Part shown: positions 4,945 through 60,035 of the stretch, in pieces
How positions within the stretch are numbered: position 1 is the first letter of the stretch
How the letters are laid out: the number at the start of each line of letters is the position of its first letter
NCBI GenBank assembly: GCA_964637955.1
Contig: CAZWXQ010000003.1
Location: forward strand, 95,154-159,153
Direction: 5' to 3'
DNA: 64,000 nt
DNA from: an uncultured Gammaproteobacteria bacterium
Lineage (GTDB): Bacteria > Patescibacteriota > Microgenomatia > Levybacterales > UBA12049
Notes under the pieces: generated by a model
The model's input: only the letters and a program-made list of their open reading frames with translations
Told to the model about the DNA's origin: nothing
The model's database searches: none
Translations under genes and position numbers: made by a program

Positions 4945-4988
4945 TATTTTTCTGCAATCAAGTTAATATTGAACGAAATTAGAAATAT

Positions 4989-7182: not shown

Positions 7183-7205
7183 TTTCTGCAAATAGCTTGA
7201 AATAA

Positions 7206-44921: not shown

Positions 44922-46051
44922 CTATCGGAATTGATGCTAGGCTTTGGAATCAAACTGGAGTAGGAAGATATATAAGAAATTTGACTCTTAATTTACTTGA
45001 TATCGACAAAGAAAATAGTTATGTCTTATTTGTAAGAGCGTTAGATAGAGATGAAATCGAGAGTCAAATTTCTAAATTTAAAATTAAAAATTTAAAATTA
45101 GAAATTGTTATTGCCAATATTGCTTGGCATTCTCTTAAAGAGCAATTAAATTTCCCAAAAATAATTGATAAAGAAAATGTTGACGTAATGCATTTCACTT
45201 ATCAGCAAAGTGTCCCGATCTTTTATAAAAAACCCTATGTAATTACGATTCATGATTTAATAAAACATCATTATATAACCGGAAGATCTTCCACTAATCC
45301 ATATTGGCTTTTGGGATTTAAAATGATTGCGTATAAAACGCTTATAAATATCGGAAGTAAGAATGCAAATAAAATCATTGCTGTTTCCCAGAGTACAAGA
45401 GATGAGATAGTTGATCACCTCACTGTCAATAAAAGAAATATAGATGTAATTTATGAAGGGGTTGATGATTTTAAAATCTCAAAACCTGGAAAAAATGAAA
45501 TTGGGGATTATTTTTTATTTGTTGGAAATGTGTTTCAGCATAAAAATACAAATAATCTCATTAAAGCTTTTAAAAAAGTAATAGAAGCAAAAGATGTTAA
45601 ATTAGTTTTTCTTGGGAGACAGGATTATTTCTTAGAAAAACTTAAAAAGGATGTTAAAAAATTAATTGATTCAAATCAGATAATGTTTATAGAAAGTGCA
45701 AGCGATAGTGAAATGGCCACTTTGTATAAAAACTCAATCTGCTTGATTCGTCCATCTTTTATGGAGGGTTTTAGTCTTCCTCCTCTTGAGGCTTTTGAAT
45801 CTGGTACTTTGGCACTTGTTTCTGATATTCCAGTACACAAAGAAATTCTTAAAGACTTTGCAATTTATTTTAATCCGAGAGACTTCGTTGACATGGAAAG
45901 CAAAATGAATTATGTTTTAAGTCTAGATAAAAAGAAGCGCGAAGCAATGATTAAAAATGGCAAGAATCTTGCAGATAAATTTTCTTGGAAAAAAACAGCA
46001 GAAGAGACGCTTAAAGTTTATGAAAATATATTTTCTTTAAATTCAATCTGA
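44918..46051 (+). CDS. Glycosyltransferase family 4
   Basis: 'MTIGIDARLWNQTGVGRY' N-domain and 'SFMEGFSLPPLEAFESGT' C-motif. Confidence 0.75.
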   Translation: MTIGIDARLWNQTGVGRYIRNLTLNLLDIDKENSYVLFVRALDRDEIESQISKFKIKNLKLEIVIANIAWHSLKEQLNFPKIIDKENVDVMHFTYQQSVPIFYKKPYVITIHDLIKHHYITGRSSTNPYWLLGFKMIAYKTLINIGSKNANKIIAVSQSTRDEIVDHLTVNKRNIDVIYEGVDDFKISKPGKNEIGDYFLFVGNVFQHKNTNNLIKAFKKVIEAKDVKLVFLGRQDYFLEKLKKDVKKLIDSNQIMFIESASDSEMATLYKNSICLIRPSFMEGFSLPPLEAFESGTLALVSDIPVHKEILKDFAIYFNPRDFVDMESKMNYVLSLDKKKREAMIKNGKNLADKFSWKKTAEETLKVYENIFSLNSI

Positions 46052-46069
46052 TATCTTCTTAAGACAGAA

Positions 46070-47149
46070 ATGAAAGTTGCGATAGTTTATGACAGGTTAA
46101 ATAAGTGGGGTGGTGCAGAAAGAGTTCTCTTAGCGCTGCATAAAATATTTCCAGAAGCTCCTCTTTTTACCTCAGTTTACAGTAAAGATGGAACTGCTTG
46201 GGCGGATTCTTTCGATGTGAAACCATCTTTTCTTCAGAATTTAAAATTTATGCAAAAACATAATGAAATGCTTGCGCTTCTAATGCCAGTTTCATTTGAG
46301 TCATTTAATTTTGATGAGTATGATTTGGTTATTTCTGTAACGAGTGAGTCTGCAAATGGAATTATTACTAAGCCTGGTACACTTCATGTTTGTTACTGTC
46401 TCACCCCCACAAGGTACCTGTGGAGCGGGTATGATGAGTATTTTAGAGGAGGATTTATGAAAACTATGTCATTGCCTGCGTTAAAATACTTGAGGCGATG
46501 GGATAAATTATCTTCTTCTAGGCCTGATGATTATATTGCTATATCTACTGAGGTGAAGAATAGAATAAAGAAATTTTATGATAAGGATTCCGAAATAATT
46601 TTCCCGCCAGTTATGATTGATCAAAAGGTTTTAAAAAAAGAAAAAAGCGAGGATTTTTATCTCCTAGTCTCAAGATTGTCGCGTCTTTCTTATTATAAAA
46701 AGGTTGATTTGGCGATCGATGCATTTAATAAAACTGGTTTAAATCTGAAAATTGTTGGAAGTGGTCCACTTGAAAAAAAACTTAAGAAAAATGCACGAAG
46801 TAATATAGAATTTTTAGGGCATTTGACAGATGATGCACTTAGCTATTACTATGAAAAGTGCAAAGCTTTAGTGTTTCCAGGTCTCGAAGATTTTGGACTC
46901 GTAATGGCAGAAGCACAGTTATTTGGAAAGCCTGTTATAGCATATGGAGCAGGTGGAGCTCTTGATATAGTAAAAGATGGAAAGACTGGAAAATTGTTTT
47001 ATAAGCAGGAAACAGATGTGCTTGTCAATGCATTGAAAAGCTTCGATGAAAGTGTTTATAATAAGCGGGATATTCAAGAAAGCGCGAAGAGATTTAGCTT
47101 TGAAAAGTTCAAGTTAGATTTAGAAAATTATATAAGTAAAAGAATATAA
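46070..47149 (+). CDS. Glycosyltransferase family 4
   Basis: 'GLEDFGLVMAEAQLFGKPVIAYGAGGALDIV'. Confidence 0.7.
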   Translation: MKVAIVYDRLNKWGGAERVLLALHKIFPEAPLFTSVYSKDGTAWADSFDVKPSFLQNLKFMQKHNEMLALLMPVSFESFNFDEYDLVISVTSESANGIITKPGTLHVCYCLTPTRYLWSGYDEYFRGGFMKTMSLPALKYLRRWDKLSSSRPDDYIAISTEVKNRIKKFYDKDSEIIFPPVMIDQKVLKKEKSEDFYLLVSRLSRLSYYKKVDLAIDAFNKTGLNLKIVGSGPLEKKLKKNARSNIEFLGHLTDDALSYYYEKCKALVFPGLEDFGLVMAEAQLFGKPVIAYGAGGALDIVKDGKTGKLFYKQETDVLVNALKSFDESVYNKRDIQESAKRFSFEKFKLDLENYISKRI

Positions 47150-47151
47150 AT

Positions 47152-48237
47152 ATGAAAGTTGTTATTTTTGCAGGGGGAGTAGGAACAAGACTTTGGCCAT
47201 TGAGCCGAAAAAATTCCCCAAAGCAATTTGAAAAAATTGTTGGTGATAATTCGATGATTCAAATTGCGGTAAATAAATTAATGCCCGATTTCTCGTGGAA
47301 CGATATTTACATCTCTACGGGTAAAGACTATGCAAGTTTGTTAAAAGATCAGCTTCCAAATCTTCCTGAAGAAAATATTATAGTTGAGCCTGCAACTCGT
47401 GATGTAGGTCCAGCGGTGGGTTTAGTTACAGCAAAATTTGTTAAAGAGTTTCCAGATGAGCCTTTTGCGATTCTTTGGGGAAGTGACCATTTGGTAAAAG
47501 AGGAAGATTTATTTAGAAGAACACTTCTTGCTGCAGAGCAAGTGGTTAAAGACGATTCGAATAAGATCGTATTTGTAGGTCAAAAGCCAAGATTTGCAAG
47601 TCAGAATTTGGGATATATAGAATTTGGCGATAAAATATCTGAAGTAAATGGAACTTCTGTTTTTGAATTTAGCGGATTTAAGTATAGACCCGACCTTGAA
47701 ACAGCGGAAGAGTTTTTAAATGATGGAAAGCACTCATGGAACTTGGGTTACTTCGTAACTACTCCTAAATTTCTTTGGAAATGTTTTGAGCAGTCAGAGC
47801 CAGGTCTTTTTGCTCAGCTTTCAGAAATTAATAAAGCTGTTGGAACTGATAAATTTGACCAAGTTTTAAATGAAATTTATCCTACCATTGATAAGATTTC
47901 ATTTGATAATGCAATTTTAGAGAAACTTGATAAGAAATTTGGAAATGTTATTTCAGTAGATATGGGATGGAGCGATATTGGGGCATGGGAAGCATTAAAA
48001 GAGGCTCTCTCTGAATCCGCGGATGAAAATGTTACGAAAGGACACGTCATGATTGAAGATTCACGTGACAGCTTGATGTTTAATTATACTAAGCAACTTG
48101 TTGTAGGAATTGATTTGGAAGAAATGCTCGTAATTAGTACTGATGATGTTGTCTTGGTGTGCCCCAAAACTTCGGTTCCAAAAATAAAAAAACTTGTTGA
48201 GAGTTTAGCAGGAACTCCCCTTGAGCATCTTACTTAA
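47152..48237 (+). CDS. manC: Mannose-1-phosphate guanylyltransferase (nucleotidyltransferase domain only, no PMI domain)
   Basis: 'MKVVIFAGGVGTRLWPLSRKNSPKQF' and 'VDMGWSDIGAWEAL' match ManC/GMP motifs ('GGSGSRLWPLSR', 'MDAGWSDVGSW'). Confidence 0.75.
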   Translation: MKVVIFAGGVGTRLWPLSRKNSPKQFEKIVGDNSMIQIAVNKLMPDFSWNDIYISTGKDYASLLKDQLPNLPEENIIVEPATRDVGPAVGLVTAKFVKEFPDEPFAILWGSDHLVKEEDLFRRTLLAAEQVVKDDSNKIVFVGQKPRFASQNLGYIEFGDKISEVNGTSVFEFSGFKYRPDLETAEEFLNDGKHSWNLGYFVTTPKFLWKCFEQSEPGLFAQLSEINKAVGTDKFDQVLNEIYPTIDKISFDNAILEKLDKKFGNVISVDMGWSDIGAWEALKEALSESADENVTKGHVMIEDSRDSLMFNYTKQLVVGIDLEEMLVISTDDVVLVCPKTSVPKIKKLVESLAGTPLEHLT

Positions 48238-48240
48238 TTT

Positions 48241-48906
48241 ATGCCCTACGTTGAAATAAAAAAAAGCTTTTTTTACGAAACTATTAAAAGGGTTATTGAT
48301 ATAGTTTTATCTATTGTTTTAATACTTTTATTTTCTCCAGTTATTATTATTGTTGCTATTGCAATAAAAATAAATTCTAAAGGTCCTATTCTTGCAGATA
48401 CACCAGAGAGGGTAGGAAGAAGTGGAACTTTATTTAAGATGTATAAGTTTCGCTCCATGGTCGAGAATGCACATGAATTGCTTCGTGAAGACCCTGAATT
48501 TGCACAGCTTTATAAGGACTATAAAAAAGGTAGTTATAAATTAAAAGATGACCCAAGAATTACTGGAGTTGGTCATTTCATTAGAAAGCACTCTCTTGAT
48601 GAAGTGCCTCAATTTTTTAATATTTTAAAAGGGGAGATGAGTTTAGTCGGACCCCGAGCATACTATCCTGATGAATTACGTGATCAGCAGTTAAGATATC
48701 CGCACACAAGAGAATCAGTAAAAGTCGTGCTTTCTGTGCGTCCTGGTGTAACCGGCTTCTGGCAGGTTTCAGGAAGAAGTGAGATAAACTTTGATAAAAG
48801 AATAGAAATGGATGCCGAATATGTTAAAAAAAGATCAATTATTTATGACATGAAGCTTATCTTCAGAACCCCAGGTGCCATGATCTCCGGTAAAGGCGCA
48901 CTTTAG
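48241..48906 (+). CDS. Small monotopic polyprenyl-phosphate phosphoglycosyltransferase (PglC/WbaP C-domain type 'bacterial sugar transferase')
   Basis: 'KGPILADTPERVGRSGTLFKMYKFRSM' and 'DEVPQFFNILKGEMSLVGPR' signature; 221 aa with one N-terminal membrane helix. Confidence 0.85.
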   Translation: MPYVEIKKSFFYETIKRVIDIVLSIVLILLFSPVIIIVAIAIKINSKGPILADTPERVGRSGTLFKMYKFRSMVENAHELLREDPEFAQLYKDYKKGSYKLKDDPRITGVGHFIRKHSLDEVPQFFNILKGEMSLVGPRAYYPDELRDQQLRYPHTRESVKVVLSVRPGVTGFWQVSGRSEINFDKRIEMDAEYVKKRSIIYDMKLIFRTPGAMISGKGAL

Positions 48907-48907
48907 A

Positions 48908-48936
48908 TTGACACGGCAGGTGAATCGTGATAAATT
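48908..48936 (+). promoter_or_regulatory. Sigma70-like promoter candidate: TTGACA (48908-48913), 17-nt spacer, TAAATT (48931-48936). ATG at 48945, only 8 nt downstream, so leaderless-type.
   Basis: Hexamers and spacing read directly; no SD possible in the 8-nt gap. Confidence 0.4.
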
Positions 48937-48944
48937 GTCTGATT

Positions 48945-49787
48945 ATGGCAAGTGAAGAAGGAAGATTAATTAGTGACCAAAGTGGATTTGTAGCAATTGG
49001 AGTAAATCCTCCCAGTGAGCAAGAACTATCTGACTCAGTAGATATTCTTTTACCGGTTCCTAATCTCAGACAAGAAGCTTATGCTGTTTTGTCAAACGCA
49101 AGACCTCCTACGCAGGAAGAAAAAAGAGCGTTTGGATCTCAGTGGGAGTTTTATAATACAGAACCACTTTCAGTAAGACAGATATTGGCTCGAGCACAGG
49201 GAGTCGACCTTTATGGGGAAGATGAAGCATTACGTAGGTACTATCTGGATAGTGGTTATGTTCCTGCGGCTCTTACAGTAGCTTTTCAAACCGCTTTATA
49301 TGATCAAAGAGCGGGAGACCTAACTGTAACTAACGATTTTACGCCACTTCCTCAGCAGTTAGATCAAATCGAAGAGCTTTCAAGGCAGGCTCAAAGCATA
49401 GCTCCTGACGCGCGTCTAATTATGCCACCTGCATCTGTGTATTTGCAGGCAGCGATTCAAAGCTTTCGAAGAACAGGTCACCCCATAAACACAAGATCAC
49501 GTTTTGTTACTTCCGAGAAGACGACTAGAGGCATGAATTACGTAACAGTGCTAGACGCGACTGATCCAGGTTCCGTTGGAGCTGTTAAGACCACTATTTC
49601 TAATCGTCTTGATCGAAGAAGATCCAGTAATCAGACGCTTATGAGCTTAGAAGTTTTTGGACACGATCCCAGGAATCCAGATTTTCCGCTCCAAATGGAT
49701 ATAGATTTTAATGGTTGGCAAACTGTTGTGGGTGGATCAGCTGCAGTTCCAGCTTTAGTTTTTGTTAATCCTCGTATGCAAGCCTAG
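48945..49787 (+). CDS. Hypothetical protein, compositional outlier (Q/R/A/P-rich, only a few Lys). ORF-track start 48927 is a GTG inside the promoter; the ATG at 48945 is preferred.
   Basis: 280 aa with no TM and no motif recognised. Visibly higher GC and different amino-acid usage than every neighbour. Confidence 0.4.
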   Translation: MASEEGRLISDQSGFVAIGVNPPSEQELSDSVDILLPVPNLRQEAYAVLSNARPPTQEEKRAFGSQWEFYNTEPLSVRQILARAQGVDLYGEDEALRRYYLDSGYVPAALTVAFQTALYDQRAGDLTVTNDFTPLPQQLDQIEELSRQAQSIAPDARLIMPPASVYLQAAIQSFRRTGHPINTRSRFVTSEKTTRGMNYVTVLDATDPGSVGAVKTTISNRLDRRRSSNQTLMSLEVFGHDPRNPDFPLQMDIDFNGWQTVVGGSAAVPALVFVNPRMQA

Positions 49788-49789
49788 AT

Positions 49790-49819
49790 TTGACACGCCT
49801 TAAGCTTAATTAGTAAAAT
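49790..49819 (+). promoter_or_regulatory. Sigma70-like promoter candidate: TTGACA (49790-49795), 18-nt spacer, TAAAAT (49814-49819). ATG at 49826, 6 nt downstream (leaderless-type).
   Basis: Read directly from the sequence. Confidence 0.4.
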
Positions 49820-49825
49820 ATCTAG

Positions 49826-51793
49826 ATGGACGGATTTGAAAAAATTGAACTAAGCTCTACTCCTAATAAGGCCAGCTCTCCAGAGAAAGCTCAAAAAACC
49901 CAGCTAGACGCAGTAAATAAAAAGCCAAAGAAGTCAAAATTCAGGAGATTAAAAAATAAAAAAGTTGTAGGAGTGATAGTTGGAGTATTTATAATACTTT
50001 TGGTTTTATTCGTGATTCCTTCGCTTCTAGTTTATTCATCAGCTAAAAAAACCTATGCTCAGGCAAAAGTTACTTCAGCTGCATTAAAAAATCAGGACAT
50101 AGAGCAAGCTCAAGTTGAGCTTAAAAAAACCCGTGAAAGACTTAAGGATACTCAAAGTAAAATGAATCTTTTGGTGGCGCTTAAATTTGTTCCAGGTCCA
50201 AATATTTATTATAACGATGCACAGCATATGATTAAAGCTGGTTTTTATGGTCTGGATGCTGCTGATACTTTTGTAGCTTCAGTTGAACCTTATGCAGATG
50301 TACTTGGGCTTAAGGGGGGGGATTCATTCACCGGAGGATCTGCTGAAAATAGAATTGAAACCGCTGTAAAAACCCTAGATAAGGTAACTCCTAAAATTGA
50401 CGATATATCTGAAGATATGAAGAAGGCTCAAAAAGAGATTGCTTACGTAAATCCTGATGATTATCCGTCTTTCATAGCGGGCGGGAAAGTTCATGAAGGA
50501 ATGAAGACTATGAGAACTCTTGCAGATGATGGTACAACTTTTATTGATCAGGCAAGGCCACTTATTAAAGTTCTTCCAGAGCTTTTGGGGCAACCAAATT
50601 CTAAAAAATATTTAGTTGTTTTCCAAAACGATAAAGAGCTTAGGCCAACAGGTGGATTCTTAACAGCATACGCTATTTTTAGAATTGATAAAGGTGTAAT
50701 TCATGTTGAGCAATCTGAAGATATTTATAAACTCGATGCTTCAGTCCCAAATAAGCAAAAGGCGCCAGCTCCAATTCTAAAATATCTTCCTAAGGTTTAC
50801 GAATTAAATTTAAGAGATAGTAATCTTTCGCCTGATTTCCAGGAATCTATGAAAGAATTCAGAGAAATTTATGATACTGCTGGAAATAAAGTAGATGTTG
50901 ATGGAATCGTAGCTCTTGATACGAGTGCATTGGTAGCAGTCATGCAGATCCTAGGAGATGTTGAGGTAAATGGAAAGAAATTGACCACGCAAACTGATCC
51001 GCGATGTGATTGTCCTCAGGTAATTTATGAATTAGAGTCAGAAGCCGGAACTAGAACCCAATATATAAGAGAAGACAGAAAAAGCATAATCGGAGATCTT
51101 ATGTATGCGATCATGAATAAAGCTTTCTCATCATCCCCATCTCAATATTGGGGGCCACTAGTTCAAGTTATGTTTGGTCAAATTGCTCAGAAGCATGTAC
51201 TGTTTAGTCTAGAAAATAAAGATGCTCAAAAAGGACTTTCAGCGGTTAACGCAGCTGGCGAAATAAAACCATTTGAAGGTGATTATCTTCATATTAACGA
51301 AGCAAATTTTGGAGGAGCTAAATCAAATCTTTTCGTTGATCAAGGAGTCGAGCAGGAATACAATGTGTCTAAAGATGGAACTATCACTAAAACTGTAACT
51401 GTAAGCTACAAGAATCCTCATGCTCCTTCCAATTGTAATCTCGAAAAAGAGTTTGCGCTTTGTCTTAATGCGCCACTTAGAGATTGGGTAAGAATTTATG
51501 TCCCAGAAGGAAGTAAATTAACTGACTCAAGTGGCTCTGAGGTTAAAATGAGCACTTATAAAGAACTTGGAAAAACAGTATTTGAAGGATTTACTACGAT
51601 AAGACCTCTTGGAGTTGGAAAGTACAGTATTACTTATACTCTTCCATTTAAGCTTAAGAAAGACTCTCCTCTACCTCTCATGATTCAAAAACAACCAGGA
51701 ACTGCAGAAGATGAGTACAGCATAAAAGTCAACGGGAAGCTAAAAGAAAAGTTTGTGCTTGACACAGACAAGACTTTAAATCTAGACTTTTAA
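49826..51793 (+). CDS. Membrane-anchored extracytoplasmic protein (655 aa), unknown function. A DUF4012-like architecture is possible but unverified.
   Basis: Charged N-terminus, single TM 'VVGVIVGVFIILLVLFVIPSLLVY', then a large hydrophilic domain with coiled-coil-like segment. Confidence 0.35.
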   Translation: MDGFEKIELSSTPNKASSPEKAQKTQLDAVNKKPKKSKFRRLKNKKVVGVIVGVFIILLVLFVIPSLLVYSSAKKTYAQAKVTSAALKNQDIEQAQVELKKTRERLKDTQSKMNLLVALKFVPGPNIYYNDAQHMIKAGFYGLDAADTFVASVEPYADVLGLKGGDSFTGGSAENRIETAVKTLDKVTPKIDDISEDMKKAQKEIAYVNPDDYPSFIAGGKVHEGMKTMRTLADDGTTFIDQARPLIKVLPELLGQPNSKKYLVVFQNDKELRPTGGFLTAYAIFRIDKGVIHVEQSEDIYKLDASVPNKQKAPAPILKYLPKVYELNLRDSNLSPDFQESMKEFREIYDTAGNKVDVDGIVALDTSALVAVMQILGDVEVNGKKLTTQTDPRCDCPQVIYELESEAGTRTQYIREDRKSIIGDLMYAIMNKAFSSSPSQYWGPLVQVMFGQIAQKHVLFSLENKDAQKGLSAVNAAGEIKPFEGDYLHINEANFGGAKSNLFVDQGVEQEYNVSKDGTITKTVTVSYKNPHAPSNCNLEKEFALCLNAPLRDWVRIYVPEGSKLTDSSGSEVKMSTYKELGKTVFEGFTTIRPLGVGKYSITYTLPFKLKKDSPLPLMIQKQPGTAEDEYSIKVNGKLKEKFVLDTDKTLNLDF

Positions 51794-51794
51794 T

Positions 51795-52331
51795 ATGAGG
51801 TCATTTCGACTCGAGGCGATAATAATAAAAAGAAAAGATATCGGTGAAGCAGATCGTATCCTCACATTAATGACTCGCCACCAAGGAAAAATTAGTGTAG
51901 TTGCTAAGGGAGTAAGGAAAATAAATAGTAGACGCGCAGCTCACATAGAACTTCTTAATCATTGCATCTTAAATCTTCATGAATCAAGGCTTCCAATTGT
52001 TACTGAAGCCGAAACTTTAAATCATTTCTCGGTTCTTAAAAATGATCTGAATAGAGCGGGATACGCTTTTTATATTTGTGAGCTTGTGGATGGTCTTATC
52101 GCAGACCATCAGGAAAATAGGATGGCATTTGAACTCGTTGAAAAAACTTTAAAAAGACTTGAAGCTAGCGAAAATCCAAAAATGCTTATAAAAGGTTTTG
52201 AGCAGGAGCTCTTGACGCTCCTAGGATTCTGGCCAGAAAAACAACAGCTTGCTATCCAAGACAGTGATGCATTTATAGAAAGCATCATCGAGCGAAAAAT
52301 AAAAACCAAAAGAATCCTCAATCTCATCTAA
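51795..52331 (+). CDS. recO: RecO-like DNA repair protein (short form, 178 aa)
   Basis: 'FRLEAIIIKRKDIGEADRILTLMTRHQGKISVVAKGVRK' is co-linear with E. coli RecO '[36 protein letters not shown]'. 'YICELVDGL' matches 'YINELLSRV'. Confidence 0.65.
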   Translation: MRSFRLEAIIIKRKDIGEADRILTLMTRHQGKISVVAKGVRKINSRRAAHIELLNHCILNLHESRLPIVTEAETLNHFSVLKNDLNRAGYAFYICELVDGLIADHQENRMAFELVEKTLKRLEASENPKMLIKGFEQELLTLLGFWPEKQQLAIQDSDAFIESIIERKIKTKRILNLI

Positions 52332-52351
52332 TGACTCGTGAATATTAAATT

Positions 52352-52942
52352 ATGGAAGAAGTAGTAGATTTAGCTCCAGAAGCGAGTTCTCTTCAATTAG
52401 AAGGTGGTATTGTTACGCCAAGATTAGAAGAGCAATTAAGAGAAGTTTATAGTCCGGATTTTTCTACCTTAGGACATGGAACTATTCCTGAGGTTGCTGA
52501 GGAGATTATGTTAACTGGGCTAAGATATAAAGATCCTGATTTATCATTAACCGCCGTTCCTCTATATGACGCAAAAATTCCTTACGACGAGCAATCGGGA
52601 GAAGTTGTTCAGAAAATTACTCATTGGCCCCATAAAGATCGAAAGGGAGTAGTGATTTTGATGATACCAAATCCCGCGGAAGATCAGCAGGGAGGAAACG
52701 CTTATTTTAATTCGGTTTTTGAAGAAAGACCTATTGAAGGAAGAAGTGATAGATACATAATTGATCCAAAATACATAAAAGGATATGTGGATGTTGAAGC
52801 AGGAAAATTCGTGCCTAATCCAAATTTTAATCCAACTCCTATAGTTTTCAAAGGAGGATTACAGGAAACGAAAATTAATGCTTCTGCAGTATCCCAACAG
52901 GTGCCAATTCCTTCTGCATCTGGGTTAAGTGAAGTTTGGTAA
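52352..52942 (+). CDS. Hypothetical soluble protein (196 aa)
   Basis: ORF with coding-like composition; no motif recognised. Confidence 0.35.
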   Translation: MEEVVDLAPEASSLQLEGGIVTPRLEEQLREVYSPDFSTLGHGTIPEVAEEIMLTGLRYKDPDLSLTAVPLYDAKIPYDEQSGEVVQKITHWPHKDRKGVVILMIPNPAEDQQGGNAYFNSVFEERPIEGRSDRYIIDPKYIKGYVDVEAGKFVPNPNFNPTPIVFKGGLQETKINASAVSQQVPIPSASGLSEVW

Positions 52943-53031
52943 AAGTCTGAAAAACCTCAAGGGAACTTGCTTCATTGAAGCGACGTAAATTCAGGATGAC
53001 AGCAAGGCTATTTTTTTGTTATCATTGCCGT

Positions 53032-54414
53032 ATGGATGACAAAATGCACAAAGTAATAGCGCTGACCAAGAGGCGTGGTTTTATTTATCCTGGAAGTGAT
53101 ATCTATGGTGGTTTGGCAAATAGTTATGACTACGGACCACTTGGAGCAGAGCTTCTTAGGAATCTTCGAAATCTTTGGTGGAAATTCTTTATTCAGAATA
53201 GGTCAGATATGGTAGGTCTTGACTCCAGTATTATTTCTCACCACAAGGTTTGGGAGGCCTCAGGACATGTAGCAGGATTTGCCGATGCCATGATTGATTG
53301 CAAAAACTGTAAGGCTAGAATGAGAGCTGATCATTTGATCGAAGGTTACTTTGAAAAGAAAGGTGAAAAAAAACAGGTGGAAGGTTTGTCTCCTGAGGAG
53401 CTGAGTCAAATAATTAAAGAAAATGAAATAAAGTGCCCGGTTTGCAGAAAATTTGACTGGACTGATGTTAGAAGGTTTAATCTTCTTTTTCCAGTTCAGC
53501 TAGGAATCGTAGAAGGTGAACAGGGACAGGCCTATTTAAGGGGGGAAACAGCTCAAGGAATATTTATTAATTTTAAAAATGTAATAGATTCCAATCGCGT
53601 TAAATTGCCCTTCGGTATTGGTCAAATAGGAAAAAGTTTTCGTAATGAAATTACTCCGGGAAATTCTATTTTTAGGACTATCGAATTTGAGCAAGCTGAA
53701 ATAGAATATTTCTTTGATCCTGAAAGGTCAAATTGGGAAGAGCTTTTTAATGAATGGAAAGAGCGAATCTTCGAGTTTGTGCTAAAAGACTTAGGAATTA
53801 ATGAAGAAAATCTTAGATGGCGTGAGCATGATGAAAAAGAAAGGTCATTTTATAGTAAAAGAACAGAGGACTTGGAATATAACTTTCCATTTGGATTTAA
53901 AGAGCTATGGGGGCTCGCATACCGAACTAACTATGATTTGACCAAGCATTCTGATGCTTCGAAAAAAGATTTAACCATAATGGACCCAGTAACTAACGAG
54001 AAAATTCTTCCCCATGTTATAGAGCCAGCAGTAGGAATTAATCGTTTACTCTTAATGACATTGATTGATTCATATACCGAAAATGATGGTAGAGTGCTAT
54101 TGAAATTAAATCCTAAGCTTTCTCCATACAAAGCTGCTATATTTCCACTTCTAGCAAATAAGCCTGAGCTTGTAGAGAAAGCCAGGGGTATTTTTGATGA
54201 TCTTAAATCTGAATTTAACGTGGCTTGGGATGACAGGGGAAACATAGGAAAGCGTTATCTATCTCAAGATGAAGCAGGAACGCCATATTGCATTACGGTG
54301 GACTTTGAAACTCTTGAAGATGACGCTGTTACAATTAGAGACCGTGACACTGCTACTCAGGAGAGAATAAAAATAGATGAGCTCAAAGTCTACATTTCAT
54401 CCAAATTATCCTAG
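53032..54414 (+). CDS. glyQS: Glycine--tRNA ligase (alpha2 GlyQS type). Start placed at the internal ATG (53032; 53044 is also possible), not the ORF-track start 52975.
   Basis: 'RRGFIYPGSDIYGGLANSYDYGPLGAELLRNL...WW' and 'DSSIISHHKVWEASGHVAGFAD...DCKNCK...R' are class II GlyRS motifs. Confidence 0.8.
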   Translation: MDDKMHKVIALTKRRGFIYPGSDIYGGLANSYDYGPLGAELLRNLRNLWWKFFIQNRSDMVGLDSSIISHHKVWEASGHVAGFADAMIDCKNCKARMRADHLIEGYFEKKGEKKQVEGLSPEELSQIIKENEIKCPVCRKFDWTDVRRFNLLFPVQLGIVEGEQGQAYLRGETAQGIFINFKNVIDSNRVKLPFGIGQIGKSFRNEITPGNSIFRTIEFEQAEIEYFFDPERSNWEELFNEWKERIFEFVLKDLGINEENLRWREHDEKERSFYSKRTEDLEYNFPFGFKELWGLAYRTNYDLTKHSDASKKDLTIMDPVTNEKILPHVIEPAVGINRLLLMTLIDSYTENDGRVLLKLNPKLSPYKAAIFPLLANKPELVEKARGIFDDLKSEFNVAWDDRGNIGKRYLSQDEAGTPYCITVDFETLEDDAVTIRDRDTATQERIKIDELKVYISSKLS

Positions 54415-54415
54415 C

Positions 54416-54444
54416 TTGACAACCAAAACGTAAAAATGTATATT
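54416..54444 (+). promoter_or_regulatory. Sigma70-like promoter candidate: TTGACA (54416-54421), 17-nt spacer, TATATT (54439-54444). ATG at 54453, 8 nt downstream (leaderless-type).
   Basis: Read directly from the sequence. Confidence 0.4.
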
Positions 54445-54452
54445 TCGTGGAT

Positions 54453-54974
54453 ATGTCACGAAGTTTAGAGGTCAGGTCTTATAATCCAGAACGAGAACAA
54501 ACAGAGCATGGTTTATTGGCTGAAGATGTATATCAAAATATTGCAGAAGTTTTAGGATCAAATCCTGACTTTCAAAAAGCACTTGCGAAAGCTTTTTTTG
54601 CCCCAAAAGATATCCATTCAGAGAAAAAAGTTAGAGAAATGTATGAATTAATTCCTGATTTTGAAGTGGAATATCCTGGTTCGAATGGAGACTTAGTTAT
54701 AGTTGGTGTTAAAAGTACTAAGCAAACGGAAGGTTATAATAGGAGATGGATGTCTCAAGAATTAAGTTATAAGACGCGTGGACTTGAATTTTTGGTAACT
54801 TCTAGCTATTACCAATTTCTTAATGAACCTACAAAAAATCACTATGGAGAAATACTTTTAAGAGATAGTAAAGGGCATCAAATTGCTTCTGGTTTAGAGG
54901 CGCTTGCTAAGTCTGCTGAGCTTCTGCCTGAGCTGGGTATTGAAGTTCCCTTACATCCTCAAGCCACTCCTTGA
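54453..54974 (+). CDS. Hypothetical soluble protein (~173 aa from the ATG at 54453)
   Basis: ORF; no motif recognised. Confidence 0.35.
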   Translation: MSRSLEVRSYNPEREQTEHGLLAEDVYQNIAEVLGSNPDFQKALAKAFFAPKDIHSEKKVREMYELIPDFEVEYPGSNGDLVIVGVKSTKQTEGYNRRWMSQELSYKTRGLEFLVTSSYYQFLNEPTKNHYGEILLRDSKGHQIASGLEALAKSAELLPELGIEVPLHPQATP

Positions 54975-54999
54975 CTTGATAGTTAAATCAAAGTAATAT
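54971..54999 (+). promoter_or_regulatory. Sigma70-like promoter candidate: TTGACT (54971-54976), 17-nt spacer, TAATAT (54994-54999). ATG at 55013, a 13-nt leader with no SD.
   Basis: Read directly from the sequence. Confidence 0.35.
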
Positions 55000-55012
55000 G
55001 GCTATGGAATAA

Positions 55013-56068
55013 ATGGGACCTATAAAACTCGCATTATCATATAACGATGTACTTCTTGTCCCACAGTACTCAGAAATTTCTTCACGAGGTGATGTAGATC
55101 TTTCTACGCAAATTGCTCCAGATATTACTTTAAAAATTCCTTTAATCGCAGCAAATATGGACACTGTTACAGGTGTAGAAATGGCTGTAGCTATGAATAA
55201 GCTTGGAGGGATGGCATTTATTGGTCGTTTTGATACTCCAAAAATTCAAGCCGATAAAGTTGCAAAAATTAAGAAGAAAGGGGCAGAGTCTATTGGAGTG
55301 ATTGGAGTTAAAGACGATTATATTAAAAGAGCAGAAATGCTTCTCAAGGCAGGTTCAATTGCGCTTCACTTAGATATTGCTCATGCACATGCAGCGCACG
55401 GTATAAAAGTTATAAGAGACGTTAAAAAGGCATATCCAAAAATAGCTCTTATTGCAGGTACAGTAGCTTCGTATCAGGGCGCATATGATCTTTTAGAGGC
55501 TGGAGCAGATACGCTGAAAGTAGGAATAGGTGCAGGATCAATTTGTATAACTAGAGTAGCAACTGGTCATGGAGTTCCTCAAATAACGGCTGTTATGGAA
55601 GCTGTGAGAGCAAAAAATAAGTTTAAAAATCGATTTATTATTGCTGATGCTGGAGCTTCAAATTCGGGAGATATTGTTAAAGTGTTAGCTGCTGGAGCGA
55701 GCGCGTATGAAGGTGGATCTCTTTTTGCAGGAACTGATGAGACACCTGGTAAAATAATTCGAAGAAATGGAATTTTTTATAAAGAATATAATGGTTCAAC
55801 TTCTCTTGAAGAAAAAGTTAGACAGCTTAAAAAAGACGCTACAAACAAAAAACCACATTATGCTATTCATGTAGAAGGAGTTGAGGCTATGGTTAAGTAT
55901 AAGGGCCCGCTTGGTGAGGTCGTAGATTCACTTACAGCTGGAATTAAAAGCGGGTATAGCTATTCAGGCGCTAAGAATATAAAAGAGCTTTGGAAAAAAG
56001 CGCAGTTTATTCAAATAACTGGAGCTGGATACAGGGAAAGTCAGTCTCACGATGTAATTTTGAGGTAG
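55013..56068 (+). CDS. IMP dehydrogenase / GMP reductase family TIM-barrel enzyme (no CBS domains, 351 aa)
   Basis: 'YNDVLLVPQYSEISSR.DVDLST', 'IPLIAANMDTVTG', 'GIGAGSICITR' catalytic-Cys loop. Confidence 0.75.
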   Translation: MGPIKLALSYNDVLLVPQYSEISSRGDVDLSTQIAPDITLKIPLIAANMDTVTGVEMAVAMNKLGGMAFIGRFDTPKIQADKVAKIKKKGAESIGVIGVKDDYIKRAEMLLKAGSIALHLDIAHAHAAHGIKVIRDVKKAYPKIALIAGTVASYQGAYDLLEAGADTLKVGIGAGSICITRVATGHGVPQITAVMEAVRAKNKFKNRFIIADAGASNSGDIVKVLAAGASAYEGGSLFAGTDETPGKIIRRNGIFYKEYNGSTSLEEKVRQLKKDATNKKPHYAIHVEGVEAMVKYKGPLGEVVDSLTAGIKSGYSYSGAKNIKELWKKAQFIQITGAGYRESQSHDVILR

Positions 56069-56099
56069 GATTCGAGCCTTACTGATCTATTTGCACTTT

Positions 56100-56215
56100 T
56101 CTCACCTGCTTTGCATGTGTTCGAAGAGTACTGCGCGCATAAGCGCTTGCACCGCTTGCTTCGCAACGGCACTGCGTCGGTCGTCAAGGGTGACCTCCTT
56201 GACAACTAATCAAAT
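56100..56215. other. GC-rich intergenic island, candidate structured ncRNA or RNA element (unclassified)
   Basis: The ~165-nt gap between the guaB-like gene and the next gene contains a segment far more GC-rich than any flanking DNA ('ctgcgcgcataagcgcttgcaccgcttgcttcgcaacggcactgcgtcggtcgtcaagggtgacc'). It has a GCGC-ataa-GCGC hairpin and other short stems. No ORF of 60 aa or more on the + strand. Confidence 0.2.
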
Positions 56216-56235
56216 TTTCCTATATTCTTGTATCA

Positions 56236-56742
56236 ATGGAATCACTTAAAAATAAAAAAATACTCTCAATAATTGCAGTAATTGCGGTAGTTCTTCTTCT
56301 TGTGGGCGGAGGGTTCTTCTTTTTTAAAAACCAGTCATCAAGCGCTTCTGATGAAAGTGAAAATGAACTAATGGATGCTTCTGATCTTCCTGAGTTGTCT
56401 CCTGAGGAAATTGGGATGATAGTGACTCTTCGAAAAGATAATAAAGCTCTGATGTTCGAGCTTACTAAAGCAAGTAAGATTGAAAAAGTAGAATATACCA
56501 TTGAATATGAGGCTACTACTGACGAAGGTACTGCGAATCAAGGTATTTTTGGAGAAATGAATATTGGAAAAGACGGTATTACTAAAACGGACTTTAGAGA
56601 ATTTGGGACATGTTCAGCAGGGAAATGCAGATATGATAATGTGTCCTCAGACGTAACTATAAATCTAAAAGTCACAATGAAAGATGGTAAAGAGTATCAA
56701 GTTAAAAAAGTCGTAAAACTTTCAGAACCTTCTGATGAATGA
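56236..56742 (+). CDS. Small membrane-anchored/secreted protein (168 aa), unknown function
   Basis: N-terminal TM 'ILSIIAVIAVVLLLVGGGFFFF' then acidic soluble domain; overlaps the next gene (ATGA). Confidence 0.4.
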   Translation: MESLKNKKILSIIAVIAVVLLLVGGGFFFFKNQSSSASDESENELMDASDLPELSPEEIGMIVTLRKDNKALMFELTKASKIEKVEYTIEYEATTDEGTANQGIFGEMNIGKDGITKTDFREFGTCSAGKCRYDNVSSDVTINLKVTMKDGKEYQVKKVVKLSEPSDE

Positions 56743-58202
56743 AAAGTTCTAGCTTAGTTAAGAACTTAAAATCTACTATAAAGAAAAAACCCGATTACTT
56801 GATTGCTTTTTTTGTCTGTTCAGTATTTTTGTTAGCATATCTAACTCTCTCATTAATTAAACATACACATTTTGGAACTGGATATGATCTTGCAATAGCC
56901 AATCAAGTGGTATGGGAATATAGCAAATTTTTATCTCCAATTTCTTCAGTACATGCATTTGCTTTTTCTTCAGTTCTTGTAGATCACATTGAATTCATTT
57001 ACATTTTTCTTTCGCCTCTTTATTGGTTATTTCCTGATGCAAAAACTTTGATAATCTTGCAATCTATCTTAATTGGTGTGTCAGGAATACCAATTTATTT
57101 GCTGGCCAGAAAATACAAAATTAATATTTACTTAAGTTTAAGTATTTTGATTTCTTATTTCATGTTTTATGGGGTTCAGAATGCTTTGTGGTCAGATGTT
57201 CATAGCTTGGTTTTCGGAGCAGTTTTTTTAAGTTTCTTTATTTTCTTTCTAGATACTGATAGGAAATTGCCAACGATATTATTTTTTTTCTTGGCAATCA
57301 CTTCAAAAGAAGACATAGCACTATTAACATTTTTAATTTCATTGGTTTACTTTATACGTACCAGAAATAGATTGCCAATTTATTTAATGCTTGGTTCCAT
57401 TATCTATTCTTTTTTAATTTTCTTTGTTTATTTCCCGCATATGGGTGGATATAGGTTTGCTAATGAAAATGGACTCCTTTCAAACATAAATTTACTAAAT
57501 TTTTTTAATACAAGAGAAAAAATCAATGTTTTCTTTTACTCTTTCTTGTCTTTTGGATTTTTACCTGTTCTAAATCCTCTTGCTTTGATTCCATTTCTGG
57601 GAGATTTAGCGCATTATTTTATTCTGGGAAATGATACTGTCACATCTGCGCAGTCAATTTTTATGCATTATAGAGTTACAGACGCGCTTTTATTGACGTG
57701 GCCTTTAATATTAGTGATTGGAAAATATAATAGATTAAACAATAAGTACCTATCTGTCTATTTACTGGGTTTTGCATTTCTGACTACATATCTGCTTCAT
57801 GCTCCTTTAACTTATCTATCTAAGTCTTGGTTTTGGACTAGACCATCTGGAGTAAATAATATAAATCAAGCAATTAGTTTTATTCCAAGTGACGCATACG
57901 TAGCTACGCAAACAAATATTTCCCCTCACATCTCAAATAGACGAATGATAGTTACTATGTGGGGAGAGAGAAAAGATTTCAATTTGGTTGATTCACCTTG
58001 CGGAAAAGTAAATTGCGCATGGTTTAAATGGGCAGGAAAGCCAGAGTATATTATCGTAGACACTTCTCCGGAATGGGATGCACGTCATTTGCTTGCAAAT
58101 AGACCAGATTTCATTGAAGGTTTGGAAAATATGGAAAAAGCAGGGAAAATCAAACTAATTAAAGAATTTAATACCTCAAAAATTTATAAGATCATCTATT
58201 AG
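56739..58202 (+). CDS. Polytopic membrane protein, DUF2079-like (GT-C-related predicted membrane glycosyltransferase)
   Basis: 487 aa. N-terminal 'HTHFGTGYDLAIANQVVWEY' resembles the DUF2079 family start; many TM helices and a C-terminal soluble domain. Confidence 0.45.
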   Translation: MKSSSLVKNLKSTIKKKPDYLIAFFVCSVFLLAYLTLSLIKHTHFGTGYDLAIANQVVWEYSKFLSPISSVHAFAFSSVLVDHIEFIYIFLSPLYWLFPDAKTLIILQSILIGVSGIPIYLLARKYKINIYLSLSILISYFMFYGVQNALWSDVHSLVFGAVFLSFFIFFLDTDRKLPTILFFFLAITSKEDIALLTFLISLVYFIRTRNRLPIYLMLGSIIYSFLIFFVYFPHMGGYRFANENGLLSNINLLNFFNTREKINVFFYSFLSFGFLPVLNPLALIPFLGDLAHYFILGNDTVTSAQSIFMHYRVTDALLLTWPLILVIGKYNRLNNKYLSVYLLGFAFLTTYLLHAPLTYLSKSWFWTRPSGVNNINQAISFIPSDAYVATQTNISPHISNRRMIVTMWGERKDFNLVDSPCGKVNCAWFKWAGKPEYIIVDTSPEWDARHLLANRPDFIEGLENMEKAGKIKLIKEFNTSKIYKIIY

Positions 58203-58281
58203 TAATTTGTAGCAAATTAATATAAGCCTATTAGATATAGTGTTTGATTTTTATTGCAACGCTATTTTGCCTTATTACCTA

Positions 58282-58310
58282 TTGACACTTTTCACAAAAA
58301 ATTTCACAAT
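58282..58310 (+). promoter_or_regulatory. mraZ promoter candidate: -35 TTGACA (58282-58287), 17-nt spacer, weak -10 CACAAT (58305-58310)
   Basis: Read directly from the sequence; lies 110 nt upstream of mraZ. Confidence 0.3.
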
Positions 58311-58318
58311 GTAAATAT

Positions 58319-58360
58319 TGATTCAAAGTGGGAAAAAGTGGGAAATAAATCTTTGAATCA
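58319..58360 (+). promoter_or_regulatory. Probable MraZ operator: two direct AAAGTGGG boxes (58325-58332, 58335-58342; 10-bp period) enclosed by a perfect 10-bp inverted repeat TGATTCAAAG / CTTTGAATCA (58319-58328 / 58351-58360)
   Basis: GTGGG direct repeats at 10-bp spacing upstream of mraZ are the known MraZ binding-site architecture (E. coli, Mollicutes). Repeats and IR read directly from the sequence. Confidence 0.55.
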
Positions 58361-58396
58361 CCACAGGCAGTCCCGTCTGTTGACGGGATAGGAAAT

Positions 58397-58852
58397 ATGT
58401 TACTCGGGCAGGTTAACAATAAGCTGGATGATAAGAACAGGCTTTCTTTTCCTTCGAAATTTCGAAAGGAATTGGGAAATAATTTAATTATTACTCAAAA
58501 TATGGAAGGTTCGCTTTTGGTAGTCTCCGAGAGTCGCTATAAGACGCTTTTAGAGGGTACCGAAAACAAGCCATTCATTTTAAAAGAAGTTCGTGAAGTT
58601 CAAAGATTTTTGTTTGGCTCTGCAGTTGAAATTGAGCTAGATGAAAAAGGAAGATTTATTCTTCCAGAACATTTAAAAGTTTATAGTGGAATTGAATCTG
58701 AAGCAGTTTTTGTTGGCGTTTATAACAGAGTTGAGATTTGGGACAAGCAGCGTTGGGAAGAGTATAATAAGAGCCATTTGAATAAGCATATTTCAGAAAT
58801 ATCACAGAAACTGTCCAGAGATGCAGGAGGCGTCTTGGAAGATAAGAGATGA
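58397..58852 (+). CDS. mraZ: Transcriptional regulator MraZ
   Basis: 'MLLGQVNNKLDDKNRLSFPSKFR' and a second 'LDEKGRFILPEHL' half-domain (duplicated DxxxR motifs). First gene of the dcw cluster. Confidence 0.85.
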   Translation: MLLGQVNNKLDDKNRLSFPSKFRKELGNNLIITQNMEGSLLVVSESRYKTLLEGTENKPFILKEVREVQRFLFGSAVEIELDEKGRFILPEHLKVYSGIESEAVFVGVYNRVEIWDKQRWEEYNKSHLNKHISEISQKLSRDAGGVLEDKR

Positions 58853-59739
58853 ATTATCACATAAGCGTACTTTTACATGAAGCGATTGACAGTTTAAAAG
58901 TCAAAAGCGGACAAAAATACATAGATGCAACTCTTGGAGGAGGTGGTCATACTAAAGAAATTTTAAGTCTTGGAGGAGTTGTTCTTGGAATCGATCAAGA
59001 TCAGGATGCCATTGATTACGTAAGCGAAAATTTGAAATTTGAAATTCGAAATTTGAAATTGAATTTAGCACGAGGAAACTTTAGCGATATTGATCAAATA
59101 GCAAATGAGAATGGGTTTGAGAAAGTCTCTGGAATATTATTCGACTTAGGAGTTTCATCGCATCAGATCGATAGCAAAGATCGAGGGTTTTCCTACCTTA
59201 GCTCTGGGCCTTTGGACATGAGAATGGATCAAAGACTAGGAGTTAAGGCAGCAGATTTAGTAAATGCGTTAGGAAAGAAAGAACTATATGATTTATTTAG
59301 AACGCTTGGTGACGAGCGTAATGCTCATGATATTAGTGAGCGTATTGTTAATGAGCGCAAGATAAAGCCGTTTGAAACGACTGATGAACTAGCAAGAGTA
59401 CTCGCCCACTCTTATGGTTTTTCTGAACCTTCAGATTTTGCGAAAGCAACTTCGGGGAAAAAAGTCTTTCAAGCGCTTAGGATTGCGGTGAATGATGAGC
59501 TGGGAAGCTTAGAAGATGCTCTTCCAAAAGCTTTGGAGCTGTTGGAAGAAAATGGAAAACTGGTAATTATTACTTTTCATTCCCTAGAAGACAGGATAGT
59601 CAAAAGAGCATTTCTTGAATTTGAGAGAGAAGGAAAAGGAAAAGTAGTTACCAAAAAACCAATATTACCAAGTAGAGAAGAAACTGACGAAAACTCAAGA
59701 AGTAAAAGTGCAAAGCTGCGGGTTTTCGAACGTTCTTAA
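58849..59739 (+). CDS. rsmH: 16S rRNA (cytosine1402-N4)-methyltransferase RsmH/MraW
   Basis: 'HISVLLHEAIDSL', 'YIDATLGGGGHT', 'GILFDLGVSSHQID', 'ITFHSLEDRIVK'. Confidence 0.9.
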   Translation: MNYHISVLLHEAIDSLKVKSGQKYIDATLGGGGHTKEILSLGGVVLGIDQDQDAIDYVSENLKFEIRNLKLNLARGNFSDIDQIANENGFEKVSGILFDLGVSSHQIDSKDRGFSYLSSGPLDMRMDQRLGVKAADLVNALGKKELYDLFRTLGDERNAHDISERIVNERKIKPFETTDELARVLAHSYGFSEPSDFAKATSGKKVFQALRIAVNDELGSLEDALPKALELLEENGKLVIITFHSLEDRIVKRAFLEFEREGKGKVVTKKPILPSREETDENSRSKSAKLRVFERS

Positions 59740-59747
59740 AAAGAATA

Positions 59748-60035
59748 ATGAAAAAACCGTTTTTTGTAATATTTTTACTATTTTTAACAATTGGAGTGCT
59801 TCTTGGAGTTAGAACAGTGGTATCTGCTAGAATTACTACATCTGGTTTAGAGCTTGGAAAAATTCAAGATGAAGCAAATGAAATAAAGACCCAAAATGCT
59901 ATTTTAAAGGAAAAGATTTTTTCATTGTCTTCTTTGACACATGTTTCAGAAATTGCTTCAAAGGATGGGTTTGTGGAAAGCAAGCAAGCCTTTGCAGTCT
60001 CCGGCGCTCGCCCAATTGCTAGAGCAAATGATTAG
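59748..60035 (+). CDS. ftsL: FtsL-like cell-division protein (small bitopic membrane protein)
   Basis: 95 aa: N-terminal TM, then a coiled-coil-like segment. Position between rsmH and ftsI; stop overlaps the ftsI start (ATGATTAG). Confidence 0.5.
   Translation: MKKPFFVIFLLFLTIGVLLGVRTVVSARITTSGLELGKIQDEANEIKTQNAILKEKIFSLSSLTHVSEIASKDGFVESKQAFAVSGARPIARAND

Follow-up and report, generated by a model that had tools for sequence, protein, structure and literature searches.

The gene examined here, designated X, is the open reading frame (ORF) at positions 48945–49787 (+ strand) of a 64,000 bp stretch of contig CAZWXQ010000003.1 (GenBank assembly GCA_964637955.1, positions 95,154 to 159,153), deposited as an uncultured Gammaproteobacteria bacterium and placed by GTDB in the Patescibacteriota (Microgenomatia; Levybacterales; UBA12049). 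This whole stretch is referred to as the window; L-numbers designate homologous loci and P-numbers protein representatives. Given its unusual composition, an initial annotation had named X as a strong candidate for recent horizontal acquisition, for example from a host or phage. The findings below indicate instead that X is probably a selected, long-branch, lysine-depleted member of a small α/β protein family of Microgenomates, a family whose genes would behave as nomadic units, and that its insertion at the present site is old.

The window is AT-rich (31.8% GC overall), and all of its sizeable genes lie on the + strand. Relative to the other 55 ORFs that are 100 aa or longer, X stands out as the initial annotation had observed. 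Its GC content of 0.433 is the highest of the 56 ORFs (z +3.1; next highest 0.386), and its product contains 3 Lys in 280 residues (1.1%, the lowest of the ORFs, versus a mean of 9.7%; z -3.4) and 7.1% Gln (z +5.4). The K/(K+R) ratio is 0.12 versus a background of 0.72 (z -5.9), the isoelectric point (pI) is 4.9 versus a mean of 8.5 for the other ORFs, and Cys is absent.

The surplus GC lies at codon positions 1 and 2 (GC1 0.579, z +2.6; GC2 0.450, z +4.1). At the third position, GC3 is 0.271 (z +1.1 versus the window and z +0.2 versus the local genes of its GC-richer right part), and at four-fold degenerate sites it is 0.235, versus 0.20 ± 0.05 per gene. AGA makes up 50% of the Arg codons versus 47–58% elsewhere in the window, CGC and CGG do not occur, and an index resembling the codon adaptation index is low-normal (z -1.8) and within the observed range. 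The synonymous sites of X bear no foreign signature, and the atypical synonymous composition and codon usage of a recently transferred gene were not found. As the GC excess lies at positions 1 and 2 while GC3 and codon choice are native, X is an outlier in amino-acid composition and not foreign DNA; the DNA is GC-rich because the Lys, Ile and Asn used by the neighbouring proteins give way in this one to Arg, Gln, Ala and Pro. The comparison of GC3 and codon adaptation proposed in the initial annotation thus came out divided, the synonymous statistics speaking against recent acquisition and overall GC and amino-acid content falling outside the range of the window. The window itself includes a step in composition, from 25–33% GC in the glycosyltransferase-rich ~46 kb at 1–46000 to 36–39% at 46000–61500 (NTP-transferase onward, housekeeping genes), and X lies just within the GC-richer part.

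A word-indexed search for homologs of X over 5.8 billion proteins matched only three sequences, which were the window's own protein, P0002 (77% identical) and P0003 (62%). In both corresponding loci, L002 (77%) and L001 (62%), X lies between the genes for a phosphoglycosyl transferase (PGT) and a DUF4012 protein, the order being PGT 3' end, X, DUF4012 5' end in L002, and NTP-transferase, PGT, X, DUF4012 5' end in L001. Across the three lineages (272–276 aligned codons), the pairwise ratio of non-synonymous to synonymous substitution rates (dN/dS) is 0.15–0.20, with dS of 0.8–1.4. As judged by these values and by the 62–77% identity of the same-slot orthologs, X is a genuine gene that is under purifying selection and old in its present slot. 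Between the window and L001, identity is 82% for PGT, 78% for the NTP-transferase, 59–62% for the DUF4012 N-terminus and 62–65% for X; on these figures, the divergence of X has roughly kept pace with that of the adjoining genes. The low divergence from a donor or other recipients that marks recent transfer was not seen, as beyond the relatives at 77% and 62% the next nearest is at ~30% identity. The proportion of synonymous differences (pS) is lower in X than in the neighbouring genes (0.50–0.63 vs 0.74–0.78 for window 48945–49787 compared with L001 1932–2768), a gap of about 2 standard errors (for a pS of 0.61 in X) that is confounded by the higher share of four- and six-fold codons in X and is left uninterpreted.

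A synteny scan was carried out using the PGT protein as query and one genome per GTDB species. It gave ~57 loci, from Candidatus Levybacteria/Levyibacteriota and a few other Microgenomates (Roizmanbacteria, Gottesmanbacteria). All retain the genes for GT4, NTP-transferase, PGT, DUF4012 and RecO, usually followed by that for GlyRS, and the distance from PGT to DUF4012 is usually 40–110 bp. In the window, both adjoining genes are oriented like X, and each lies only 38 bp away. No homolog of X was detected in the 57 related loci, either by tblastn or by a hidden Markov model (HMM) of the wider family applied to six-frame ORFs. Because these relatives keep the flanking synteny without X, the gene is an insertion into a conserved block, in agreement with the initial view that it was wedged into this position. 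It is absent from the orthologous site of relatives, as a recently transferred gene would be, and occurs only in the window's genome and two diverged lineages. Hence the synteny check supported insertion, since most relatives lack X, while the syntenic orthologs in two lineages spoke against its being recent. The distribution points to an old, lineage-restricted insertion that has been patchily retained. No integrase, tRNA or transposase adjoins X in the window, and no Y1 transposase or REP-like hairpin (REP, repetitive extragenic palindrome) of the kind that marks REPtron or IS200/IS605-type cargo was found beside it there; the whole window contains no tRNA and no Rfam family. The possibility that the N-terminus of X arose from a duplicated promoter and 5' end of the DUF4012 gene was rejected, as the alignment in the window (p = 0.015) had no counterpart in L001 or L002.

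Many of the third-party metagenome-assembled genome records titled ‘uncultured Gammaproteobacteria bacterium’ (L005–L010, L012, L015, L017–L019 and others) hold this Levybacteria-type block. Their GT4-NTP-PGT-DUF4012-RecO-GlyRS segment is 80–87% identical to that of the window at the protein level, and the titles look mislabelled.

X has its own promoter, as the initial annotation had recognised (Table 1). The -10 box ends 8 nt upstream of the ATG, leaving a leader of ~0–2 nt, and from this spacing the mRNA would be essentially leaderless. The promoter is kept in both orthologs, L001 and L002, and the same architecture is found upstream of distant family members in other contexts. An alternative GTG start is possible at 48927; ATG 48945 is taken as the start because the proteins of both orthologs open with MA(I/S)E and the -10 box comes after the GTG. 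Shine-Dalgarno sequences are nearly absent from the window (~3 of 56 genes), and since a short leader is the native style of such a genome, it is not a foreign signature. TTGACA-N16-18-TAnnnT promoters ending 2–13 nt before the start codon were observed for about seven genes (starts at 41363, 48945, 49826, 51795, 54447, 55013 and 56236), which suggests that leaderless or very-short-leader mRNAs are widespread in this genome.

Table 1. Positions of X and its flanking features in the window, and of the 3' flank motif TTTTGGATTTTTnCTTCTTGGTTTCC at other loci.
Feature	Sequence	Position	Strand	Details
PGT (left flank)	Window	48241..48906	+	Bac_transf, PF02397 (Pfam); 80–84% identity to Levybacteria homologs
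Left repeat copy, TAGATTGACACGG	Window	48904..48916	+	PGT stop codon plus -35 box of X promoter; read directly
X promoter, sigma-70-type	Window	48908..48936	+	TTGACA (48908–13)-N17-TGaTAAATT, TG-extended -10 TAAATT at 48931–36; consensus scan
X coding sequence	Window	48945..49787	+	280 aa, acidic (pI 4.9), 3 Lys, 0 Cys, soluble
Right repeat copy, TAGATTTGACACGC	Window	49785..49798	+	X stop codon plus -35 box of DUF4012 promoter; in all three X-bearing loci
DUF4012 gene promoter	Window	49790..49819	+	TTGACA-N18-TAAAAT, 6 nt before ATG 49826; consensus scan
DUF4012 membrane protein (right flank)	Window	49826..51793	+	PF13196 (Pfam); followed by RecO and GlyRS
3' flank motif	L085	10619–10660		
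3' flank motif	L086	1720–1760		
3' flank motif	L087	1986–2007		
3' flank motif	L089	6744–6765		
3' flank motif	L093	1729–1750		

The promoter of the DUF4012 gene is conserved over Levybacteria loci as ATTTGACA...TAGTATCATATATTAATGGA and is the ancestral one, which lies directly after PGT in relatives without X. X is bracketed by an imperfect direct repeat of 12–13 nt, TAGATT(T)GACACG. Where X is present, as in three loci, the PGT stop codon is followed by TAGATTGACA and X by TAGATTTGACA; in X-less loci such as L030 and L057, the TAG of PGT is followed directly by ATTTGACA of the DUF4012 promoter, L030 reading TAGATTTGACA. This arrangement would fit a target duplication or promoter capture. In X-less L006, the PGT-DUF4012 spacer (6687–6713) contains an exact AGATTGAC-N14-GTGAT, the skeleton of the X promoter, which is possibly a scar of X deletion.

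Distant relatives of X were sought in an exhaustive HMMER search, in which a profile of the three orthologs was compared with 1.84 billion cluster representatives. One X-type representative and 16 proteins of 198–259 aa were recovered (E values of 1e-9 to 5e-4), the 16 being colinear with X over its full length, from LRQxxYxxL to the C-terminal VPAVVF, at 24–32% identity. A further match, P0004, is an 811-aa helix-turn-helix repeat protein that aligned in 7 short stretches with an E value of 3e-11; it was set aside as a repeat artefact. Further searches brought the family to ~80 clusters at 90% identity, of 200–260 aa; a word-indexed search for the family among 5.8 billion proteins gave 68 clusters. 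Two members are named records, UU73_C0002G0190 of Candidatus Daviesbacteria GW2011_GWA1_41_6 (P0042) and ACD_38C00161G0006 (P0088). In the reverse direction, a profile of 80 members without the X clade matches X at E 3e-14 (69 bits), calculated for the full database, so that the profile matches are significant, reciprocal and extend over most of the length, as family membership demands. Motifs shared by X and this family are LRQxxYxxL, R-x-P-xxx-E, YxP, QLxxIE, PDAR-x-x-M-x-PAS-x-Y-x-Q, LD and the C-terminal VPAxVF, with full-length colinearity at 24–31% identity and a promoter architecture that abuts the start codon. Unlike other members, X is 20–80 aa longer, with insertions near residues 85–100, 180–197 and 220–250, it is acidic and belongs to a clade with 0.7–2.2% Lys versus 3.5–8% in the family, and it lacks the conserved 3' flank motif described below.

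As far as detected, the family occurs only in Microgenomates-type bacteria of the candidate phyla radiation (CPR). Scanning metagenomes with the 10 nearest members yielded a single contig. No relatives were found among IMG/VR viruses, INPHARED phages, PLSDB plasmids or PHROGs, and PADLOC defence models matched neither X nor two family members. None of the members matched a Pfam family, and Pfam applied to all 28 members examined (E ≤5) gave no recurrent family.

Members of the family lie in varied surroundings. The contexts are nusA, infB, hypothetical gene, [family], rpsO, pnp; rpsO, pnp, [family], AAA gene, RNase J; transketolase, [family], glycerate kinase; dnaJ, SpoIIM, [family], VTT, UPF0182; IS1595 transposase, [family], reverse transcriptase (L093/94); and prfA, [family], Y1 transposase with hairpins (L095/96). 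Two of these six adjoin mobile genes (IS1595/RVT or Y1_Tnp). Across contexts, including the X clade, the promoter is kept as TTGACA-N17-(TG)ATAAAT followed by 8–11 nt ending in aATT-ATG. A 3' flank motif, TTTTGGATTTTTnCTTCTTGGTTTCC(C)GAAAATTTT, was also observed just past the stop codons of family genes in unrelated contexts (Table 1); no stable or covarying hairpin or terminator structure was predicted for it, and it was not found after X, the stop codon of which directly abuts the DUF4012 promoter. On this pattern, family genes would behave as nomadic single-gene units. Two paralogs occur on one contig (L087 1228–1974 and 6119–6790), on either side of rpsO-pnp, and on two others fragments lie directly downstream of full-length genes (L093 2013–2300 and L089 7028–7333).

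X has no transmembrane (TM) segment (maximum Kyte-Doolittle value over a 19-residue window 1.13) and no match in Pfam, NCBIfam, PHROGs, PADLOC or PDB, in keeping with the earlier remark that it carries no TM helix or motif that could be placed. A single-sequence PDB match to the Map effector of enteropathogenic Escherichia coli (E 0.36) was judged to be due to chance, as were profile matches against PDB sequences to NadA (E 0.03 (0.029) over 40 residues) and to a coiled-coil protein (E 2.3). An AlphaFold2 run with three orthologs was unusable (predicted local distance difference test, pLDDT, of 30). The model obtained with 28 sequences has a predicted template modelling score (pTM) of 0.72 and a mean pLDDT of 70, with 73 residues at pLDDT ≥90. 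Blocks 41–80 and 141–170 are above 90, and the N-terminal 38 residues and the X-specific insertions are low. The predicted fold has β strands alternating with helices and a β-rich C-terminal part. In a Foldseek search of the model, the best PDB match had an E value of 0.55 (TM-score ≤0.15) and the best BFVD match 0.84. Of the homology and structure checks that the initial annotation had suggested, the former yielded a distant family in Microgenomates, while Pfam, PDB and Foldseek gave no match.

Of the near-invariant family residues, X retains R53, P55, E59, F69, Y105, P107, Q138, S146, P154, P162, Q168 and G178, as well as L203, D204, G263, V272 and F273. The X clade has replaced others, namely D170 (D in 97% of the family) by A, the Arg of ‘VGR’, S131 by D, F88 by D and T45 by A. 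Because D170 and the ‘VGR’ Arg are replaced, the specificity or activity of X has probably diverged from that of the family. Lys makes up 0.7–2.2% of residues in all three X orthologs versus 3.5–8% in the rest of the family, and the family Lys positions are mostly Arg in X; lysine depletion is a trait of the X clade. Residues 1–38 of X (48945–49058) are predicted to be disordered (pLDDT <50) and do not occur in the wider family; they are highly conserved in the three orthologs (DQSG[FY]V..GV.PP.EQELSDSVD.LLP.PN) and may constitute an interaction peptide.

The preferred explanation assembles these observations as follows. A family unit with its own promoter would land between unrelated housekeeping genes, sometimes beside transposases, and one such unit would have entered the PGT-DUF4012 spacer in a lineage of Levybacteria. 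This would have happened so long ago that ortholog identity has since fallen to 62% and synonymous sites are near saturation. X would then have been kept in a few lineages, and lost from or never present in most. Its high GC is a by-product of Arg, Gln, Ala and Pro replacing Lys and Ile. The product is envisaged as acidic, soluble and cytoplasmic, acting by itself and outside the glycan pathway through a putative site composed of R53, E59, Y105, Q138, Q168 and D204, polar residues that are invariant in the family and kept in X. Tentatively, the best guess for its role is an accessory or conflict-type rather than a housekeeping one.

Several points weigh against this explanation. The Pfam, PDB and Foldseek searches provided no functional lead, most family members are assigned taxonomically only by their gene context and by the two named records, and the AlphaFold2 alignment has only 28 sequences, with about a quarter of residues below pLDDT 50. 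The repeat bracketing X consists of a stop codon and a -35 box, so that it could owe its presence to function and not to a target duplication. The flanking genes, moreover, give conflicting relationships. L001 shares 85–89% (PGT), 66–70% (DUF4012 N-terminus) and 62–63% (NTP-transferase) identity with the X-less group L005–L012/L018, and 82%, 59% and 78%, respectively, with the window; thus PGT and the DUF4012 N-terminus place L001 nearer to genomes without X, while the NTP-transferase makes the window and L001 sisters. The pattern of presence and absence is not cleanly tree-like and is ambiguous, as one gain with losses would be inseparable from transfer by recombination in the flanks. Our reading is that X was gained long ago and subsequently lost in places, and that the glycan cluster underwent some recombination, transfer between lineages via flank homology being the alternative.

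The alternative that survives best regards X and its relatives in the family as genes of mobile elements, either cargo or of addiction/defence type, spread for example by REP/RayT (Y1) elements and with a function in genetic conflict. In addition to the members beside Y1_Tnp with REP-like hairpins (L095/96) and beside IS1595 and a reverse transcriptase (L093/94), a family gene lies near AbiEii in L087, the family includes paralogs, fragments and a pseudogene remnant, and its genes are accompanied by the conserved 5' promoter and 3' flank motif. RayT-like genes and REP hairpins also occur in the same PGT-DUF4012 gap of L010, L013 and L047. However, no PADLOC or PHROGs match was obtained and no partner gene is consistently adjacent, X has no adjoining transposase, REP hairpin or 3' motif, and mobile genes are adjacent in only 2–3 of ~7 contexts. 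This explanation is possible, though on balance unlikely.

The gaps in question contain diverse material. In L010 (gap 2128–3877), an ORF of 282 aa is accompanied by a fragment of a RayT-like Y1 transposase and by a duplicate of the PGT 3' end, the duplicated C-terminal fragment (...FGKGAL) lying at 2786–2944. The L012 gap (6663–7848) holds a 365-aa ORF. Both ORFs are low in Lys and have GC above that of their own genomes, and the promoter TGATATAATTCCC is common to the two cargo genes. Intact RayT-like genes between REP-like hairpins are found in L013 (gap 1012–1841) and L047 (gap 4826–5700), a 217-aa TM protein in L037 (6657–7457) and two small ORFs in L041 (6654–7370). The hairpins around Y1 (RayT-like) genes are GC-rich (L013 1012–1045/1745–1800, L010 2128–2160/2860–2890, L095 6555–6575/7240–7262), and similar ones (TAGCCTC...) follow the PGT stop codon in X-less L006, L008 and L011.

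The RecO-GlyRS spacer of the window holds a second orphan ORF (52352–52942, + strand; 196 aa, acidic, 5% Lys, GC1 0.55), for which no Pfam, NCBIfam, PHROGs or PADLOC match was found and which tblastn detected in none of the 57 related loci. In L041, the same spacer (10356–10720) is occupied by a degraded family cassette, consisting of the promoter, a stop-ridden remnant of ~300 bp and the 3' motif. The L010 282-aa and L012 365-aa gap ORFs and the orphan at 52352–52942 were considered as hidden relatives of X and rejected (hhalign probability ≤0.3%). The adjacent GlyRS ORF (52975–54414, + strand) has a TTG start that is probably too far upstream, as most tblastn homologs align from residues 13–24.

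It is improbable that X is a lineage-specific subunit or regulator of the envelope-glycan machinery, working with PGT and DUF4012. X shares the orientation of both genes at a spacing of 38 bp and keeps its position in all three X-bearing lineages, and DUF4012 is CPR-enriched and tied to capsular polysaccharide/exopolysaccharide (CPS/EPS) loci (PMC6744442). On the other hand, most relatives have the PGT-DUF4012 pair without X, X and DUF4012 each have their own promoter, no other family member was found beside glycan genes, X lacks a membrane segment, and the same gap carries unrelated cargo in other lineages. A role of the family in RNA metabolism or ribosome biogenesis, with X as a relocated copy, would account for the three contexts in the nusA-infB-...-rpsO-pnp-...-RNase J neighbourhood (L085, L087, L092). 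Yet family genes do not keep one place there, lying either before rpsO or after pnp, the remaining contexts have no connection with this neighbourhood, the three loci may stem from related organisms, and at 68 clusters in 5.8 billion proteins the family is too sparse for a core function; such a role is very unlikely.

A bolder proposal, regarded as very doubtful, starts from the lysine content. For AB toxins such as cholera toxin and ricin, it has been proposed that the scarcity of lysine in the catalytic A chains (cholera toxin A1, ricin A) limits their ubiquitination at lysines once they are inside the target cell (PMC3153193). X resembles them in composition only, as a soluble protein with a strong bias of Arg over Lys; it differs in having no sequence or fold similarity, secretion signal or B-subunit partner, and nothing indicates that it leaves the cell. 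By analogy, the near-total avoidance of lysine in the X clade, kept up over saturated synonymous divergence and against a strong AT mutation pressure that favours Lys, might represent selection for escape from lysine-directed tagging, for example of a protein acting inside the bacterial host of an episymbiont, and a family with a new fold might move among Microgenomates genomes as a defined cassette of promoter, ORF and 3' motif by a new mechanism, possibly REP/RayT-assisted.

Recent acquisition from a phage or host, with GC-rich DNA not yet ameliorated, is highly unlikely. Like classical ‘alien’ genes, X breaks synteny, is absent from the 57 related species genomes and is extreme in total GC and amino-acid composition. 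It differs from them in that GC3, four-fold GC3 and codon choice are native, that its same-slot orthologs are deeply diverged, and that its borders in the window are free of mobility genes and tRNA. The proposed host or phage source was not borne out either, as the viral and plasmid searches were negative and all detectable homologs lie in CPR-type contexts, beside housekeeping genes. That X is a spurious or decaying functionless ORF is scarcely credible, since the missing annotation and domain matches and the pLDDT of 30 in the three-sequence run are outweighed by the low dN/dS over three lineages, the conserved promoter, the full-length homology to ~80 family clusters and the confidently folded core obtained with the deeper alignment.

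The main value of the preferred explanation, an old insertion of a Microgenomates family gene, is one of correction: in an AT-rich CPR genome, an outlier in GC and amino-acid composition is not evidence of recent foreign DNA, and separating GC3 from GC1 and GC2, together with a synteny check, settles such cases. Three modest positive results, none of which yet answers a long-standing question, are added to this. A small family of ~80 clusters, detected only in Microgenomates, is delimited, with a confident predicted α/β core, conserved DNA motifs at its flanks and no match in Pfam, PDB or BFVD. In Levybacteria, the spacers of the PGT-DUF4012-RecO-GlyRS block have repeatedly received single orphan genes and REP/RayT elements and are insertion hotspots. 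The X clade, finally, avoids lysine with unusual strictness. Hypothetical families enriched in CPR/Microgenomates were described by Meheust et al. 2019 (PMC6744442), chosen as widespread in CPR. X resembles these in being lineage-restricted, in residing in a small symbiont-type genome and in adjoining the CPR-enriched DUF4012 gene. The X family, with 68 clusters at 90% identity and a single X clade, differs in its rarity and patchy distribution and therefore belongs to the accessory genes and not to the CPR core set; X is an accessory gene of a kind common in CPR genomes (PMC6744442).

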